Shown here one piece after another: positions 4,161 through 13,795 of a stretch of DNA of 20,000 nucleotides. The number at the start of each line of letters is the position of its first letter. Positions within the stretch are counted from its first letter, which is position 1. This stretch comes from an uncultured virus (IMG/VR IMGVR_UViG_2579779168_000001) (taxonomy: Duplodnaviria; Heunggongvirae; Uroviricota; Caudoviricetes): the IMG/VR virus record IMGVR_UViG_2579779168_000001. One strand, written 5' to 3'. The notes under the pieces are model-generated. The model was not told the origin of the DNA. It saw only the letters and a list, made by a program, of their open reading frames with translations, and did not search any database. The position numbers and the translations under genes are program-made.

Positions 4161-5179
4161 GCGGCCACGACCCCAGCCATCATTGGTGCCGCTTCCTTGG
4201 CCGCCAGGATCTGCGCCGCTTGCCGGAAATAGTCCTTGTTCAGCTCGGTCCCGATGAACTTGCGGCCGGTATCGAGCGCCTTGAACCCCTCGCTGCCGAT
4301 GCCGGCATACGGCGACAGAACCAAATCGCCGGGGTTCGACCAGAGACGAATACAGCGCTCGATCAGGTCGAGCGGCATCGGGCAGAGATGCCGGACCGCC
4401 TCAGGGTCGCGCGAGAAGACGGTGTTCAGTACGTCCGTCTCGTCAGTGTCGTCCCATACCGGTGACGCCCAGCGCTGCCAGATGTCGAGCGCTTCGAAAT
4501 ATCGCGGATCGGCCTTTTGGTCCTTGTCGCTGAGGGACGTATAGTCCGGCAGAGCGTCATGACTGAGCACGCGGCGCGTGACGAACTGAGCGCCCTCACC
4601 TGCCCACAACGGCCAGTCTCCGGGCAAGTGCACTACAGGATGATCATCCATGCCGTCCGCCCATTTGCGGAAGGTCACGATGTATTCTGGCAAGCCCTGA
4701 CGGACGCGGCCGGCATCAGTTCGGAAGTTCTTGTAGAGCAGGCCGTCCGGCTTGGACTTGGTCATCTCGCGGACGGGGCAGCGCCGCACCGTCGTCTTGG
4801 AGTGGAGCGTCCAACCCGCGCGCCGGTGTGTGCGAATGCAGTCTCCGGTGAAGTCCGTCAGGCCCCGATCGCCGCGCTCGCTGGCGTTCGAGTAATAGAC
4901 CATGTCCTTGACGTGGATCGAAACGTGCCGCCCGGGTTTGATGACCCGGAACAGCTCGCGAGCGACGTAGGAATAGGCCTCTTGGAACTCCTCATCGCTC
5001 GCGACATTGCCCATGTCGCGCTCGCAATCCGAATAGATGTAGAGGTTGGAGAACGGCGGGCTGTAGACGGAAAAATCGACGCTGTTGTCAGGCAATCGCG
5101 ACAGCACTTCGACGCAATCGGCGTTCCAGAGTGTGAAGTTTTCGCCCTCGGCGATACCGTCGTGCGGAATCTCGATCAT
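4157..5179 (-). CDS. DNA methyltransferase, N4-C/N6-A family, beta-type motif order
   Basis: DCVEVL..LPDNSVDFSVYSPPF (motif IV) near the N-terminus; HLCPMPLDLIERCIRLWSNPGDLVLSPYAGIGSEG...GRKFIGTEL (motifs X/I) near the C-terminus. Confidence 0.93.
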   Translation of the reverse strand: MIEIPHDGIAEGENFTLWNADCVEVLSRLPDNSVDFSVYSPPFSNLYIYSDCERDMGNVASDEEFQEAYSYVARELFRVIKPGRHVSIHVKDMVYYSNASERGDRGLTDFTGDCIRTHRRAGWTLHSKTTVRRCPVREMTKSKPDGLLYKNFRTDAGRVRQGLPEYIVTFRKWADGMDDHPVVHLPGDWPLWAGEGAQFVTRRVLSHDALPDYTSLSDKDQKADPRYFEALDIWQRWASPVWDDTDETDVLNTVFSRDPEAVRHLCPMPLDLIERCIRLWSNPGDLVLSPYAGIGSEGFKALDTGRKFIGTELNKDYFRQAAQILAAKEAAPMMAGVVAA

Positions 5180-6579
5180 GCCACCCTCATGAATTTTGGA
5201 AGCGGAGACGCCTGAGACGGCGCGTAATCGTTGAGGACCGAGGAGGAGAGGGCCGCACGGCCCATGGCCGCCGTCATCTCTCGCTTCATGAGATCGTGGT
5301 CCCCGGCCTTGCGGGCGATTGCCTGTCCGATCGCCGCCTCGGTGTCGGCACAGACGACATGGACATGAACGGGCCGCGTTTGGCCAAAACGCCAGCAGCG
5401 CCGAACTGCCTGGTAATAGCTCTCGTAGGAGAAGCTGAGCCCGACGAAGGCCATGCGGGCACAGTGCTGCCAGTTCAGGCCATATCCTGCGACCGATGGC
5501 TTGCTGATCAGGTGCTTGATCTCGCCGCGGGAGAAGGCGTCGAGGCGCTTTTCTTTGATCTCCGCGATCTGGCTGCCACGGACCTCCGTCGCATCGGGCA
5601 TCGCCTCGCGAAGTGCATCGGCCTCATAGTCGGTGTCGCACCAGATAATCCATGGCTCGCCCGCATCCGCCGCGACGATCTCTGCAACCTTCTCCGCGCG
5701 AGCTCGCACGGTCATACGCTTCTCTCGATGGATGGAGGTGGCGGACATCTCTGGCAGACGGAACATGCGAGCCTGCCCGTCGCGCTCCTCGCCGGCATCG
5801 CCGCTCACATCGGCTCGAATGAGGTGGCGATGCTGGACGAGCTCGGGCAGCACATAACCATCGTCCGGGAAACCGATATCAGACGGCATGCCGATGCATC
5901 GCGACCACGAAGCCATCCATTCCCAGAACGACTTGGCGGCGGCACGCTTCAGCCGATAGCGCGCCATCTGCGCCTGGTCCGAGATGAACCAGCGTGAAAG
6001 CATTTCGTTCGCGGCCATGACACCGAGAAAGGCCGATTGCTGGCCCAGTTCCATGTGATCGTTCGGCGCCGGCGTCGCCGTCGCGGAAAGGCGATATGGC
6101 GTCGACTTGAAGATCTCGATCAGCTTGCGTGTCGTGACGCCCGTAAAGCTCTTGAGGATCGACGACTCGTCGAGAATGACCGCGCCGAACTGCGAGACAT
6201 CGAAGCGATCCAGTCGCTCATAGTTGGTGATGACGATGCGGGCGCGATCGGAGGGGACTGGCTCGCGCCGGAAGACGGCATCAATGCCCCAGCGCTGCGC
6301 CTCGCGCTCATGCTGGGCCCCAACGGCGAGCGGTGCCAGCATCAGCGCCGGCCGGTTGGTATGTTCAACGACGACGCGGCCGTATTCGAGCGCGGCGAAG
6401 CTCTTGCCCAGGCCAGTATCGAGGAAATGCGCTGCGCGGCCGGTGCGTAGGGCGAACTCGACGCAATGTTCCTGATGCGGCTTTAGCGCTGAATTCAGGG
6501 CTGGGATCCGCGCAAGCCCCGATGGCACGGCAGCGATGCGCTTAGATGCAACCAGGGCGTGATAGGCCTCAATGCTCAT
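5176..6579 (-). CDS. SNF2-related (SF2) helicase/ATPase
   Basis: LKPHQ, DTGLGKS (motif I), ILDESS (II), SATATPAPND (III), GLNWQ (V), QAVRRCWRFGQ (VI); ATG at 6579 overlaps the upstream stop. Confidence 0.92.
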   Translation of the reverse strand: MSIEAYHALVASKRIAAVPSGLARIPALNSALKPHQEHCVEFALRTGRAAHFLDTGLGKSFAALEYGRVVVEHTNRPALMLAPLAVGAQHEREAQRWGIDAVFRREPVPSDRARIVITNYERLDRFDVSQFGAVILDESSILKSFTGVTTRKLIEIFKSTPYRLSATATPAPNDHMELGQQSAFLGVMAANEMLSRWFISDQAQMARYRLKRAAAKSFWEWMASWSRCIGMPSDIGFPDDGYVLPELVQHRHLIRADVSGDAGEERDGQARMFRLPEMSATSIHREKRMTVRARAEKVAEIVAADAGEPWIIWCDTDYEADALREAMPDATEVRGSQIAEIKEKRLDAFSRGEIKHLISKPSVAGYGLNWQHCARMAFVGLSFSYESYYQAVRRCWRFGQTRPVHVHVVCADTEAAIGQAIARKAGDHDLMKREMTAAMGRAALSSSVLNDYAPSQASPLPKFMRVA

Positions 6580-6911
6580 GCCACGCCTCCCCGCAGGAGG
6601 CATTCGGCGGCGCGCTGATCGAAGGTGGCGCGAGCAATGCCGATGTTGCGGCAGTAGGCCGCGATCCGCTGTTCCAGATCACGAGGGAGGCTGGTCTGGT
6701 CGATCACCTCAATGGAGCGCGCGCGGTTCGGCAGGCGGCGGATAGCGCCGCGCTCCTCAAGATTGGCCATCAGTCGGAACACGCCTGACTTGGAGCGTAG
6801 ACCAACTCCGGCTGCCATCTGCTCATAGGAAGGCGGCTGCCCTTCGCGAGCGGCAAACTCGTTCACGAAATCCAACAGCGCGCGCTGCCGCTTTGTCAGG
6901 CCCGTGCTCAT
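6576..6911 (-). CDS. LexA-type winged-helix DNA-binding protein lacking the peptidase domain; short RHH-like C-terminus
   Basis: LTKRQRALLDFV...PPSYEQM...LRSKSGVFRLMANLEERGAIRRLPNRARSIEVI closely resembles the alphaproteobacterial LexA N-terminus. Only 111 aa, with no Ser/Lys dyad domain. Confidence 0.88.
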   Translation of the reverse strand: MSTGLTKRQRALLDFVNEFAAREGQPPSYEQMAAGVGLRSKSGVFRLMANLEERGAIRRLPNRARSIEVIDQTSLPRDLEQRIAAYCRNIGIARATFDQRAAECLLRGGVA

Positions 6912-7474
6912 CAGGCGGCTCCTGCGATGAAAGGGTCGCGCATCCGCATCCGGGCGACGGCATCGCGGGCGGCGAAATCGGGGTCGGCTTTGAAGGCGAC
7001 GGCGAACCAGAGGCAGAGAGCGTCACTGTGGTTGTCGTCGACGAATTCGAGACCGCGGGTCAGGCATTCCTGCTTGACGGCCGCTTTGGCTTCTTCGCGT
7101 TTCAGGCGGCCTTTGCCCTTGCCAAGGAAGGCGATGCGGGCCTGCGCAGGCTGGACCTCGTCACAGCGAACGCGCAGCAGATGGGAGATGCCGAGAATTC
7201 CCCAGCGCATCCCAGCCTGCATCATGATGGTGTCGATGTTGGTGAAGCCCTGGCCCTGCTTCCCGGCAATCGTCTGTGTCGAGAATTCGAAGGCGACGCG
7301 GTCTGGCTGATGCAGCCCGATCATGTCGCCAACGAACTGAAGCTGCTCACCCGCGATCTTGCCGTGATCTGACCCTGACGGCGCGAGACGGCGCGTTCCG
7401 CCGATCAGCTTTCCGCCGATGGGGGCAAACGCCCATCCCGTCTTCACGCCGATGTCGAAGGTGAGCAGTTTCAT
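6911..7474 (-). CDS. RuvC-like Holliday junction resolvase (phage type)
   Basis: LLTFDIGVKTGWA (first catalytic D), VAFE, DDNHSDAL (C-terminal acidic pair). Confidence 0.8.
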   Translation of the reverse strand: MKLLTFDIGVKTGWAFAPIGGKLIGGTRRLAPSGSDHGKIAGEQLQFVGDMIGLHQPDRVAFEFSTQTIAGKQGQGFTNIDTIMMQAGMRWGILGISHLLRVRCDEVQPAQARIAFLGKGKGRLKREEAKAAVKQECLTRGLEFVDDNHSDALCLWFAVAFKADPDFAARDAVARMRMRDPFIAGAA

Positions 7475-9284: not shown

Positions 9285-9401
9285 CTAGCGCCCCGACAAA
9301 ACGAGGCCGATCAGCAGGATCGGCGCGAACGCGATGAGACCGGCGGCCGCAAGGGCGCCAACGAAGAGAACGCCGACGATGAGATCGAGGGCGCGGGACA
9401 T
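9285..9401 (-). CDS. Small membrane peptide (38 aa, MSRALDLIVGVLFVGALAAAGLIAFAPILLIGLVLSGR); not in the ORF track
   Basis: Translated by hand; ATG overlaps the cro stop (TGATG) with a GAGAGG SD upstream; almost wholly hydrophobic. Confidence 0.6.
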   Translation of the reverse strand: MSRALDLIVGVLFVGALAAAGLIAFAPILLIGLVLSGR

Positions 9402-9631
9402 CAGGCGACCTCTCTCGCAGGAGCGAACTTCTGGGATCGCAATTGGCGGAAGAGCGGGTAATCGACCCCGCTGATGCCGTGCTCGGGCGCCGCCTCAATG
9501 AGCAGTCCCCAGTACTCCGCAGGGATCGAGCCTCGCGTCTTCATGACGCGGACATGGCTCTCCTTCACGCCGAGAAGCTCGGCGACCACCTTCACGCCAA
9601 AGGCGTCGATCACGGATGCGAAGCTGTGCAT
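9401..9631 (-). CDS. cro: Cro-like transcriptional regulator
   Basis: 76 aa, SVIDAFGVKVVAELLGVKESHVRVMKTRGSIPAEYW HTH; divergent from the CI-like gene across the operators. Confidence 0.82.
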   Translation of the reverse strand: MHSFASVIDAFGVKVVAELLGVKESHVRVMKTRGSIPAEYWGLLIEAAPEHGISGVDYPLFRQLRSQKFAPAREVA

Positions 9632-9635
9632 ATCC

Positions 9636-9705
9636 GTATCGCTACACTAAGTAGCGATACTGGTCAATGCGGCACGTAGCGATATGGGCGCTACATTCTG
9701 TAGCA
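9636..9705. promoter_or_regulatory. OR-like operator region with divergent promoters
   Basis: Perfect palindrome GTATCGCTAC-actaa-GTAGCGATAC (9636-9660), half-degenerate site caatgc-N5-GTAGCG (9665-9681), and CGCTAC-attct-GTAGCa (9689-9705). The minus strand has TTGACC-N17-TAGCGA towards cro. Confidence 0.85.
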
Positions 9706-10460
9706 TGACCGACGACCGCATTCGAAAAGTTCAGGGGCAGCGGCTCGCTGAAGCTCGCCTCAAAGCGGGGTGGCGCTCGTCACGAGCAGCGGCGATTGAA
9801 AATGGTTGGGCAGAGTCCAGCTATCGCGCCCACGAAAACGGCAGCCGGACGATCGGCCAGAACGACGCCGAGACTTATGCGCGACGCTTTCGCGCTGCCG
9901 GAGTAAGCATCACCGCTCAAGAAATCCTGTTTGGTCCTAGTGCGGACGCTTCCCAGGATGACGCCTCTAAGCCCGACGAGCTCATCGTAGCCGGCGCGCG
10001 CATCCCTCTCTCTGATCGAGCCCTGCGCGGCGGCGCTCGTGACCTGCCAGTACCCGGAATCGCCCTTGGAGGTTCGGAGGAGGAAGGCGATTTTCAGCTC
10101 AATGGCGAGGTCCAGTACTTCTTGGACCGGCCTGCCGGGCTCGTTGGACGGAAGCGAGCATTTGCCGTCGTCATTCGGAACGACAGCATGATCCATTCCT
10201 ATAGGCCGAGCTGGCCGATCTTCGTGGATCCTGATGGGCGCCAGCCTGTCGCAGGCGTCGATGATGTCTTGATCGAACTCTATTCCGAGGAAGAGGGTCG
10301 GGCCGGACCGGCGTTTGTGAAGAAGCTCGTCTCGCGACGTGGCAGCGAGGTTGTTCTGTGGCAACAGAACCCCGAGAAGGAGATCCGCTTTCCTATTGAT
10401 CGGGTGAAGCAAATTCTCCGTGTTATCCCCTACCCCGAGGCTATGGGGTTGTCTGTGTGA
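9705..10460 (+). CDS. cI: CI-like repressor: XRE HTH plus S24 autopeptidase (alternative start at 9684)
   Basis: RLAEARLKAGW.S...AA..NGW..SSYRAHENGSR HTH; IALGG cleavage-site region; RNDSM (Ser) and FVKKL (Lys) catalytic motifs. Confidence 0.92.
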   Translation: MTDDRIRKVQGQRLAEARLKAGWRSSRAAAIENGWAESSYRAHENGSRTIGQNDAETYARRFRAAGVSITAQEILFGPSADASQDDASKPDELIVAGARIPLSDRALRGGARDLPVPGIALGGSEEEGDFQLNGEVQYFLDRPAGLVGRKRAFAVVIRNDSMIHSYRPSWPIFVDPDGRQPVAGVDDVLIELYSEEEGRAGPAFVKKLVSRRGSEVVLWQQNPEKEIRFPIDRVKQILRVIPYPEAMGLSV

Positions 10461-10510
10461 CTGACAGCCTCCACCGCCTCTAACTCGCGCTCGATCTTGG
10501 GGAGCGCTGG

Positions 10511-10816
10511 CTATGACAGCCCGGTCCTCCCGCAATCGAACTCGCGCAGAGCGGCTTCGATCTCGCGAAGTTTGATATCTGACGGCGGCGCCAGAATTTG
10601 GCTGTTCGCTCCGCCAACAGTCCCGCACATCGGCATGACGCTAGCATCCTCGTCTAGGCCGTACTCTTCAAATTCAAACTGCATCTCGGGGAATTCGCGG
10701 CGCAGGTACGCTTCGATCCGCTCGCGCGCCCCATTGAACGCGCGCTCCTTGCCGAGTGGCGGGAACACGACGATCTGCTTCGTCTCGGGCAATCCTTCAT
10801 GCCACGGTTTCATCAC
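10511..10816 (-). CDS. Hypothetical protein (about 101 aa), second gene of the SOS-boxed operon
   Basis: GTGA overlap with the upstream Zn-ribbon gene and a GAGG SD; convergent on cI. Confidence 0.65.
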   Translation of the reverse strand: MMKPWHEGLPETKQIVVFPPLGKERAFNGARERIEAYLRREFPEMQFEFEEYGLDEDASVMPMCGTVGGANSQILAPPSDIKLREIEAALREFDCGRTGLS

Positions 10817-11055
10817 TCACCTCGCTTGATTGGATAGACGCTGACGTTTTTGCCGAGGCCGCCACGGTCGCGGCAGACGGCGCAATGCAGTTTGTCGTGC
10901 AGCCCAATCAGGCTGAAGACGCCGTTTGCTATGTGCCGTCGGATCTCACCAGGCGGCATTCGCTTGGTGCGGCCACAGTCCTCACACCTGATGTCGATCG
11001 CTCGAAATAGCGATAATTCCGGCCGCAACGGCCCCTCTTCCGCCCATAGGCTCAT
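10813..11055 (-). CDS. Small Zn-ribbon protein (CxxC...CxxC, 80 aa)
   Basis: IRCEDCGR...LHCAVCRDRG; preceded by a LexA box. Confidence 0.75.
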   Translation of the reverse strand: MSLWAEEGPLRPELSLFRAIDIRCEDCGRTKRMPPGEIRRHIANGVFSLIGLHDKLHCAVCRDRGGLGKNVSVYPIKRGE

Positions 11056-11074
11056 CTCGACGCCACCCAGTTTT

Positions 11075-11089
11075 GTTCTCGTTGCGTTC
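11075..11089 (-). promoter_or_regulatory. Alphaproteobacterial LexA (SOS) box
   Basis: GTTC-tcgttgc-GTTC (GAAC-N7-GAAC on the minus strand), intergenic, about 20 bp upstream of the ATG at 11055. Confidence 0.8.
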
Positions 11090-11171
11090 CCATTGAAGCC
11101 AGACGCGCCGCCATGAGTCGAGTCGAGTTTTCGCGCTACTGACGCGCGCTGTCAGGAAACGCCTAATCAGG

Positions 11172-11217
11172 ATCGCTACATGGCGTGTTGACATAGATCG
11201 CTACTTCATGTAGCGAT
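11172..11217 (+). promoter_or_regulatory. PL/OL-like promoter-operator of the rightward early operon
   Basis: TTGACA (11188-11193)-N17-TAGCGA overlapped by the perfect palindrome ATCGCTAC-ttcat-GTAGCGAT (11197-11217); extra half-site ATCGCTAC at 11172-11179; same motif as OR. Confidence 0.85.
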
Positions 11218-11253
11218 ACTTCCATCAGCCAACCGGCGATGGGGATCGACGCA

Positions 11254-12979: not shown

Positions 12980-13795
12980 ATGGCACAGGAATGGCTTGAA
13001 GACGCCAACGGCAACCGCTGTTCGGTCGAGTATTTCGGCTCCCGCGAGGAAGCGCAGAAGGCTCTCGATAGCCTCGAAAACTGCGAGAATTGCGCCAACT
13101 GCTCGCGCTGCTCGGGCTGCTCGGACTGCTCGGACTGCTCGNNNNNNNNNNNNNNNNNNNNNNNNNNNNNNNNNNNNNNNNNNNNNNNNNNNNNNNNNNN
13201 NNNNNNNNNNNNNNNNNNNNNNNNNNNNNNNNNNNNNNNNNNNNNNNNNNNNNNNNNNNNNNNNNNNNNNNNNNNNNNNNNNNNNNNNNNNNNNNNNNNN
13301 NGCTCGCGCTGCTCGCGCTGCTCGGGCTGCTCGCGCTGCTCGGGCTGCTCGGACTGCTCGGGCTGCTCGGACTGCTCGCGCTGCTCGGGCTGCTCGCATG
13401 TCGCCTTCCTCTGGAACAAGAAGGACGAGAAGGGCGACCCGAGCGCCGACATCCCGGCCGGACCGCCGCAGGTTCCTGTCATCGAGAATATCCACCAGAA
13501 GGTGTTCGAGGCCGCTTCGGCGCCCGGCGCGCTGCGCATGAGCTCGTGGCACACCTGCGGCACGACGCACTGCCGAGCCGGCTGGGTCGTTCATCTTGCA
13601 GGCGACGCTGGTTATGCGCTGGAGCGGTTTTTCAACACCGAGCTCGCGGCGATGAAGATTTACGACGCGAGCAGCGATCTTCCCAAGGTCTCGCCCGTCC
13701 ACTTCTACGACGGCAACGAAGCCGCCCTCGCCGACATGAAGCGCATGGCGGATCTGGAAGCGGCCGCCAACGCGCCAGAGCCGCAGGCGGCCTGA
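12980..13795 (+). CDS. Cys-rich tripeptide-repeat (CSx)n protein with a C-terminal WHTCGTTHCRAGW domain; spans an assembly gap
   Basis: AGGA SD upstream; unique N- and C-terminal domains flank in-frame CSR/CSG/CSD repeats; true length is uncertain because of the N run. Confidence 0.75.
   Translation: MAQEWLEDANGNRCSVEYFGSREEAQKALDSLENCENCANCSRCSGCSDCSDCSXXXXXXXXXXXXXXXXXXXXXXXXXXXXXXXXXXXXXXXXXXXXXXXXXXXXXXSRCSRCSGCSRCSGCSDCSGCSDCSRCSGCSHVAFLWNKKDEKGDPSADIPAGPPQVPVIENIHQKVFEAASAPGALRMSSWHTCGTTHCRAGWVVHLAGDAGYALERFFNTELAAMKIYDASSDLPKVSPVHFYDGNEAALADMKRMADLEAAANAPEPQAA
13081..13396 (+). repeat. 9-bp tandem repeat TGCTCG(CGC/GGC/GAC), interrupted by a 160-N gap at 13142-13301
   Basis: Repeat units are directly visible on both sides of the gap. 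Confidence 0.9.

Follow-up and report, generated by a model that had tools for sequence, protein, structure and literature searches.

We analysed a 20,000-nucleotide stretch of DNA from an uncultured Caudoviricetes virus (IMG/VR IMGVR_UViG_2579779168_000001; this whole stretch is the window below), which its Pfam and PHROGs matches mark as the early region of a temperate phage, and find that it encodes a LexA reduced to its DNA-binding head and extended by a new C-terminal tail. The protein, here termed mini-LexA (6576..6911, minus strand; 111 residues plus stop, ATG start), has a head that is LexA-derived and of the alphaproteobacterial (alpha) type, followed by a conserved module that may adopt a ribbon-helix-helix (RHH)-like fold. 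We tentatively read this prophage early gene as the source of a RecA-proof regulator of the LexA family, which would dimerise through its tail and act on GTTC-type boxes; we hold this as a real possibility rather than as the probable answer.

A LexA head without the cleavage domain

Mini-LexA matches only winged helix-turn-helix families in Pfam, with PF01726 (LexA_DNA_bind) covering residues 3–65 (E = 3.7e-15; 55.9 bits against a cut-off of 23.7). The LexA-type winged helix-turn-helix occupies residues 1–70 (6702..6911, minus strand), with the recognition helix at about 39–53 and the wing at 57–69. PHROGs places the protein with phrog_3502 (unknown function, E = 1.2e-15) and phrog_362 ('transcriptional repressor', E = 2.3e-7). 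An AlphaFold2 model from 19 aligned sequences (mean predicted local distance difference test (pLDDT) score 83.4) gives the head helices at 7–23, 29–36 and 41–53 and strands at 57–59 and 67–69. LexA structures lead the Foldseek search of the Protein Data Bank (PDB) with this model (3jsp, 3jso, 1lea and 3k2z; E = 1e-4 to 9e-4, root mean square deviation 1.3–2.3 Å over 65–71 columns), and a PDB profile search with the mini-LexA family also matches LexA (E = 8.6e-8 to 7e-6).

What follows the head in canonical LexA is missing. Pfam gives no match of mini-LexA to the S24 family (PF00717) at E up to 1, and neither the Ser/Lys dyad nor the Ala-Gly cleavage site is found in its 111 residues (Pfam). 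TIGR00498, the NCBIfam equivalog model for LexA, scores 56 bits, below its cut-off of 110.95, and aligns over model positions 2–71 only. The gene has not been split, because the next gene downstream encodes a helicase. The absence of an S24 domain, claimed in the original prediction from the translation, is borne out by these results, and DNA damage acting through RecA can therefore probably not inactivate mini-LexA.

The nearest relatives of mini-LexA lie in prophages of Bosea sp. ASV33 (L001, 93% identity) and of a Bosea metagenome-assembled genome (L002, 91%). We compared the head with the LexA of Bosea sp. ASV33 (L006), a stand-in that may not be the LexA of the host itself. Residues 5–70 are identical to it at 37 of 66 positions (56%; BLASTP E = 5e-23), and the identity is uneven, with 12 of 33 residues shared in 5–37 and 25 of 33 in 38–70, the part that holds the recognition helix and wing. 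Bosea LexA reads RSKSGIHRL in the helix and IRRLPNRAR in the wing. The RSKSGVFRL helix and IRRLPNRAR wing singled out in the original prediction are both present in mini-LexA, the wing being identical in the two proteins, and the claim that residues ~5–70 track alphaproteobacterial LexA agrees with both this alignment and the PF01726 match.

The mini-LexA family profile aligns with Escherichia coli LexA without gaps and with an offset of 1. This makes S40, S42, G43 and R46 of mini-LexA the equivalents of S39, N41, A42 and E45, described as the main DNA contacts of the E. coli protein (PMC11442139); all four are the same in Bosea LexA. Among the 14 close members of the family S40 and R46 never vary, and S42 and G43 hardly do. 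The same profile matches canonical LexA heads in 380 of the 401 genomes of the order, at ~92–98 bits. All but one of the best 120 longer homologues listed are canonical LexA proteins with PF00717, with head identities of at most 61%, and the mini-LexA tail occurs in none of these 120.

A conserved tail, possibly of the RHH type

Residues 71–111 (6579..6701, minus strand) form the tail, modelled by AlphaFold2 as a coil (70–76), a helix (77–90), a G-I-A turn and another helix (94–108), with pLDDT ~90 for the helices. Folded alone, it again gives a coil and then two helices (pLDDT 80), and no strand appears in the monomer models. The tail is shared by 13 close relatives of ~110 residues (55–93% identity), and E80, C87, R88, R94 and A101 are invariant in the close family. 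The codons of mini-LexA show 25 synonymous and 8 non-synonymous differences from L001, and 37 and 12 from L002. The tail is thus a conserved module under purifying selection, and a new one, not a piece of the LexA linker. It exists in two variants: P0005, P0007 and P0008 combine a near-identical head (4 of 70 residues differ in P0005) with tails only 31–36% identical. Because near-identical heads carry divergent tails, head and tail behave as separate modules.

Structure comparison makes an RHH-like fold the best supported for the tail, short of establishing it. Foldseek returns 27 rows at E = 1.8–9.4, mostly RHH proteins: HicB (36% identity over 39 columns), CopG, the N-domains of MazE6 and MazE9, VapB, Arc, ParG, DinJ and AmrZ. 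VIA-align, run against 48,161 representative chains, finds 477 chains at Z of at least 2 and puts RHH proteins at the top of the list, although Z values below 8 may reflect merely a common arrangement. The RHH domain of PutA scores 4.5, DinJ 4.3, RelB and NikR 4.2 each and MazE6 4.1, followed by TacA, ParD, omega, the RHH domain of PrpA, Arc and MatP (3vea, Z = 3.6). Three of the VIA-align titles name RHH; the other RHH labels among the structure matches of the tail are our own assignments. RHH proteins are obligate dimers, and in MatP an RHH already serves as the dimerisation module of a different DNA-binding domain.

When 1.84 billion representatives are searched with a profile of the tail alone, made from the window, L001 and L002, 16 proteins match at E up to 1e-3, of which seven are ~110 residues long and share the same architecture; the other nine match in multiple stretches and are taken as spurious, and P0062, P0063 and P0072, which were inspected, are repeat proteins. 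Neither a stand-alone tail nor another fusion appears in this search. P0062 (382 residues) has ~45-residue repeats whose helix-turn-helix unit resembles the YCR..GI.R.TF stretch of the tail, a likeness that we judge to be a summed repeat match; the reading that it suggested, of the tail as a second helix-turn-helix, was dropped because both structure aligners favour RHH.

The extreme C-terminus (6579–6590 in the window) has a feature of its own, in that 17 of 20 members of the tailed family end in alanine (-VA, -AA, -WA, -GA or -RA). Such ends resemble those of ssrA-like tags recognised by ClpX and of the LexA N-terminal fragment, and may be a degradation signal.

A credible LexA box common to three prophages

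The window holds one exact GTTC-N7-GTTC, at 11075..11089 (plus strand; GTTCTCGTTGCGTTC), 20 bp upstream of a minus-strand open reading frame (ORF) at 10813–11055. GTTCN7GTTC is given as the LexA motif of Caulobacter (PMC12700426). Boxes stand at the same relative place in L001 (GTTCTGCTTACGTTC) and L002 (GTTCTGCTTGCGTTC), and the Bosea lexA promoter carries GTTCTGCTTGTGTTC; the pattern GTTCTNNTTNNGTTC is matched 8 times in either Bosea genome, and its reversed form, run as a control, 0 times. The immunity regions of the three related prophages differ, and mini-LexA and the box are common to all. Because the box recurs in L001 and L002 despite these dissimilar surroundings and resembles the Bosea lexA operator, the SOS box placed here by the original prediction looks real, and we regard it as a credible LexA box.

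It is also the one conserved candidate target in all three prophages. Outside regions of coding homology, the window, L001 and L002 have no inverted GTTC/GAAC repeat in common at spacings of 0–25, and GTTC/GAAC half-sites form no cluster in the window (maximum 5 per 150 bp). Another box in the ASV33 prophage (L027:4384) is taken as chance because it lies inside the integrase coding sequence.

Directly downstream of the box is an 80-residue ORF with two CxxC pairs (10813..11055, minus strand), and behind it a 101-residue ORF (10511..10816, minus strand); neither matches a family in Pfam, PHROGs or NCBIfam. L001 has at the same place a 79-residue ORF, also with two CxxC pairs, that is unrelated by BLASTP to the ORF in the window. 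This LexA-boxed two-gene module (10511–11089) could be an SOS-triggered module of the antirepressor type.

Early operon and immunity region

The minus-strand operon runs from a cro-like gene through three unnamed ORFs to genes for a RuvC-like resolvase, mini-LexA, an SNF2 helicase, a DNA methylase, DnaB and a DUF1376 primosomal protein, a gene order that supports the earlier claim that mini-LexA is made from the lytic operon. The mini-LexA reading frame is translationally coupled on both sides. The RuvC-like resolvase gene upstream (6911..7474, minus strand; phrog_159, E = 1.1e-9) meets it in a TGATG overlap (6909..6913, minus strand), in which the resolvase stop and the mini-LexA start share one base, with AGGAG 7 nucleotides upstream; the mini-LexA stop in turn lies over an in-frame ATG of the SNF2 ORF (ATGA, 6576..6579, minus strand), with GGGAGG upstream. 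The ORF of this SNF2-type helicase spans 5176..6603 (minus strand), its likely start is 6579, and it matches Helicase_C, SNF2-rel_dom and phrog_62 (E = 3.3e-63). The first gene of the operon, encoding a cro-like helix-turn-helix protein (9401..9631, minus strand), has weak YdaS, HTH_17 and Phage_CI_repr matches. A pattern scan lists terminator-like sites inside the upstream ORFs, and its count of 8 against 4.5 ± 2.5 expected is no evidence of function.

Divergent from the cro-like gene is that of a cI-like repressor with an S24-like C-terminal domain (9684..10460, plus strand; phrog_4, transcriptional repressor, E = 1.5e-12). Its Peptidase_S24 match has E = 1.4e-4 and a score of 21.9, under the Pfam cut-off of 23.3; a VAGA in the linker and NDSM and VKKL motifs would fit a self-cleaving S24 repressor. 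The two genes are separated by an operator-like, perfect 10-bp inverted repeat, GTATCGCTAC-N5-GTAGCGATAC (9636..9660). A second copy, ATCGCTAC-N5-GTAGCGAT (11197..11217), is recorded as overlapping a TTGACA (11188–11193) ahead of the plus-strand RecT operon, and the core of the repeat occurs there in up to three copies (11169–11220).

The prophages of the window, L001 and L002 are mosaic. Their flanks share 70–85% DNA identity, and the cI/cro immunity region of the window (9285–11222) has no detectable DNA similarity to L001 or L002; the immunity region of L001 contains an extra gene of 267 residues. Elsewhere in the window, a run of N (13142–13301) falls inside an ORF (12980–13795) and is flanked on both sides by a 9-nucleotide tandem repeat (GCTCGSGCT-like; 14 copies listed, 13074–13418).

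A possible surrogate for host LexA

In the mechanism that we tentatively propose, which takes up the idea of the original prediction that a RecA-insensitive dimer could re-silence the SOS regulon and the phage's own boxed operon, host LexA would be cleaved and the cI-like repressor removed, and the early operon would then make mini-LexA. The protein would accumulate, pair through its tail and, having LexA-like contact residues, occupy GTTC-type boxes, namely that of the phage at 11075–11089, ahead of the two-gene operon, and the SOS boxes of the host. Repression would thereby be restored while RecA* keeps host LexA cleaved. The SOS-triggered module of the phage would be shut off once no longer needed, and host SOS functions and LexA-controlled rival elements would be damped. 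The specific proposal that mini-LexA re-occupies GTTC-N7-GTTC as a surrogate LexA, silencing the phage module together with the SOS regulon of the host and any rival prophages or bacteriocins under LexA control, is one that we put forward more guardedly still.

Several observations weigh against this reading. No Pfam family, RHH or other, matches the tail at E up to 10. A PDB profile search with the tail gives three matches, none of them RHH (a leucine-rich-repeat chain, a baseplate protein and a SUMO-like chain, taken as chance or repeat matches), and ESM Atlas yields nothing usable by features, with all structure rows at a template modelling score below 0.5. Both aligners stay under significance, Foldseek with nothing at E up to 1e-3 (best 1.8) and VIA-align with no chain at Z of 5 or more (best 4.8). 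The original prediction of an RHH/CopG pattern in the ~40-residue tail therefore stands as far as both structure aligners rank RHH first, below significance, and finds no backing in Pfam, the PDB profile search or the Atlas. The box itself is a point to weigh: at up to one mismatch GTTC-N7-GTTC occurs 16 times in the window against 14 ± 4 expected, which is not above chance, so that the case for the box rests on the single exact site. Geometry may be a further obstacle. As a direct repeat, the alpha box may lie out of reach of a two-fold symmetric dimer with so short a linker: mini-LexA has at most 7 residues from wing to tail, compared with ~50 in the linker of Bosea sp. ASV33 LexA.

Comparison with other proteins adds to these points. 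GIL01 gp6, the only characterised truncated phage LexA homologue, binds a palindrome of its own and activates a late promoter (PMC6182141). Among short alpha-type LexA-head genes, a host-like recognition helix is not visibly linked to an exact box in the locus: with host-like helices, L025 has one box and L011 none, and none is present in L022 and L023, where 3 of 4 positions match; with diverged heads, there are three boxes in L019, one each in L013 and L018, and none in L016. P0060 and P0061, which are distantly related and share the tail, carry other residues at three of the four contact positions or at all of them. The LexA comparison itself was made with the Bosea stand-in. Because short LexA-head genes always sit among replication and recombination genes, we also keep a non-transcriptional role in view.

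The first of the alternatives is a phage-specific regulator like gp6, which would activate or repress phage genes from a private operator, such as one at a middle or late promoter beyond the window, and would not act on LexA boxes; we consider it possible but doubtful. Gp6 is exactly such a case (PMC6182141), and PHROG 362, matched at E = 2.3e-7, carries the label transcriptional repressor. The variation of the recognition residues in the wider class and in P0060 and P0061 is what would be expected if regulators co-evolve with their own sites, and L018 pairs a diverged head with a box, GTTCTCGTGGCGTTC, that is 14/15 identical to that of the window; this box is presumably for host LexA, with the target of the L018 mini-LexA elsewhere. 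The close family behaves differently, however, its contact positions having stayed LexA-like in 14 members though the head has diverged to 56% identity with Bosea LexA. Nor is there another conserved GTTC-type site or inverted repeat in the window, L001 and L002, or a LexA-like box in the 14.1 kb of the ASV33 prophage downstream (L026), where sites of other sequence were not searched for; this reading is thus left without a candidate site.

Mini-LexA could instead be an accessory of replication or recombination, such as a factor that targets an origin or helicase, and not a transcription factor at all. Its place between the RuvC-like resolvase and the SNF2 helicase, with the methylase, DnaB and DUF1376 genes downstream, would suit such a role, as would the similar company of other short alpha-type LexA-head genes; two tail variants on 94% identical heads could be the look of a partner-specific module. 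We consider this unlikely: L002 keeps mini-LexA without the adjoining helicase, the window has no cluster of GTTC/GAAC half-sites of the iteron kind, and early regulators of temperate phages are commonly found inside replication modules. Least probable by far is that mini-LexA is what is left of a captured lexA gene, inert or in decay. Two thirds of LexA are indeed missing, and TIGR00498 reaches 56 of 110.95 bits, but the reading frame is unbroken and coupled to its neighbours at both start and stop, synonymous differences outnumber non-synonymous ones (25 to 8 against L001, 37 to 12 against L002), 13 close relatives keep the same length and tail, and that tail is a new conserved module, not linker debris.

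Distribution of the tailed family

Head-only phage homologues of LexA are common and catalogued. A tblastn search of the phage collection with mini-LexA finds 16 records, all below 60% identity and matching the head only, which include Bacillus phage genes annotated as 'LexA DNA-binding domain protein'. The tailed family is rare within the collections searched. Full-length members occur in 1 of 401 genomes of the order searched (G001) and at 2 loci in the species-representative genome collection; scans of IMG/VR for the tailed family gave 0 loci and then 1, head only, and a scan of JGI metagenomes found no tailed member, its 15 loci all being head-only.

The short LexA-head genes outside the tailed family have varied surroundings and tails. 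At L018:3780–5566 such a gene has a homologue of an SNF2-like helicase downstream (no Pfam match at E up to 0.001; the likeness is read from the translation). Other short LexA-head genes have other tails, with DUF1376 in L011 and L025, a methylase in L011, VRR-NUC in L013, PDDEXK in L022 and RecT in L017. In L019 a GcrA-like gene stands two genes upstream, and the mini-LexA there has an N-terminal extension with a CxxC.

Comparison with known systems

Mini-LexA shares its head with alphaproteobacterial LexA (PF01726, RSKSG.xRL and IRRLPNRAR) and differs from it in having neither the long linker nor the Ala-Gly site nor the S24 domain for dimerisation and autocleavage, in scoring below the TIGR00498 cut-off, and in being encoded in a prophage early operon. 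It is closer in make-up to the N-terminal cleavage fragment of LexA, a free head that is described as still able to repress and as degraded by ClpXP 'to prevent residual repression' (bioRxiv 10.1101/2023.03.24.534141). That fragment is short-lived and has lost its dimerisation domain, whereas mini-LexA is encoded by a gene and carries a substitute tail. With RHH proteins (CopG, Arc, the PutA N-domain, NikR, antitoxins of the DinJ/RelB/ParD type and MatP) the tail has in common a G-x-[A/T] turn between two ~14-residue helices, besides the first rank given to them by two aligners; it differs in lacking a Pfam RHH match and a predicted strand, and in scores below significance.

The known protein most like mini-LexA is gp6 of the Bacillus thuringiensis tectivirus GIL01, described as phage-encoded, in an early operon, and essentially a LexA head with no S24 domain, and therefore as not cleavable through RecA (PMC6182141). 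Mini-LexA is of this type: a LexA head only, no S24, in a phage early operon. In the published description gp6 has no dimerising tail, binds a palindrome of its own and activates the late promoter P3 (PMC6182141). By the same description (PMC6182141) gp6 and the LexA head of its host share 44% identity; mini-LexA and the head of Bosea LexA share 56%. Mini-LexA, unlike gp6, keeps the LexA contact residues and carries an RHH-like tail. We found neither a LexA-head/RHH fusion nor a mini-LexA of an alphaproteobacterial phage in the literature searched, a coverage that leaves out most subscription journals.

If mini-LexA does stand in for LexA, it would join the anti-SOS factors by which a mobile element damps the SOS response of its host, such as GIL01 gp7 and the plasmid protein PsiB. 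PsiB acts on RecA. Gp7 acts by binding LexA, as reported in PMC4551915. Mini-LexA would differ from both in acting at the operator, as a surrogate repressor. Should it bind host boxes, it would give experiments a direct way into how a temperate phage terminates or overrules the SOS response that induced it, and an anti-SOS device working at the operator would bear on competition among co-resident SOS-inducible elements; should it not, it would be one more early phage regulator made from a captured host domain. Three ways in which mobile elements turn LexA to their own use are known: they carry LexA boxes, they stabilise the repressor (GIL01 gp7), or they put its head to work at a new site (gp6). 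An uncleavable phage look-alike of LexA with the recognition residues of the host would, if confirmed, represent a fourth route, that of repressor replacement.

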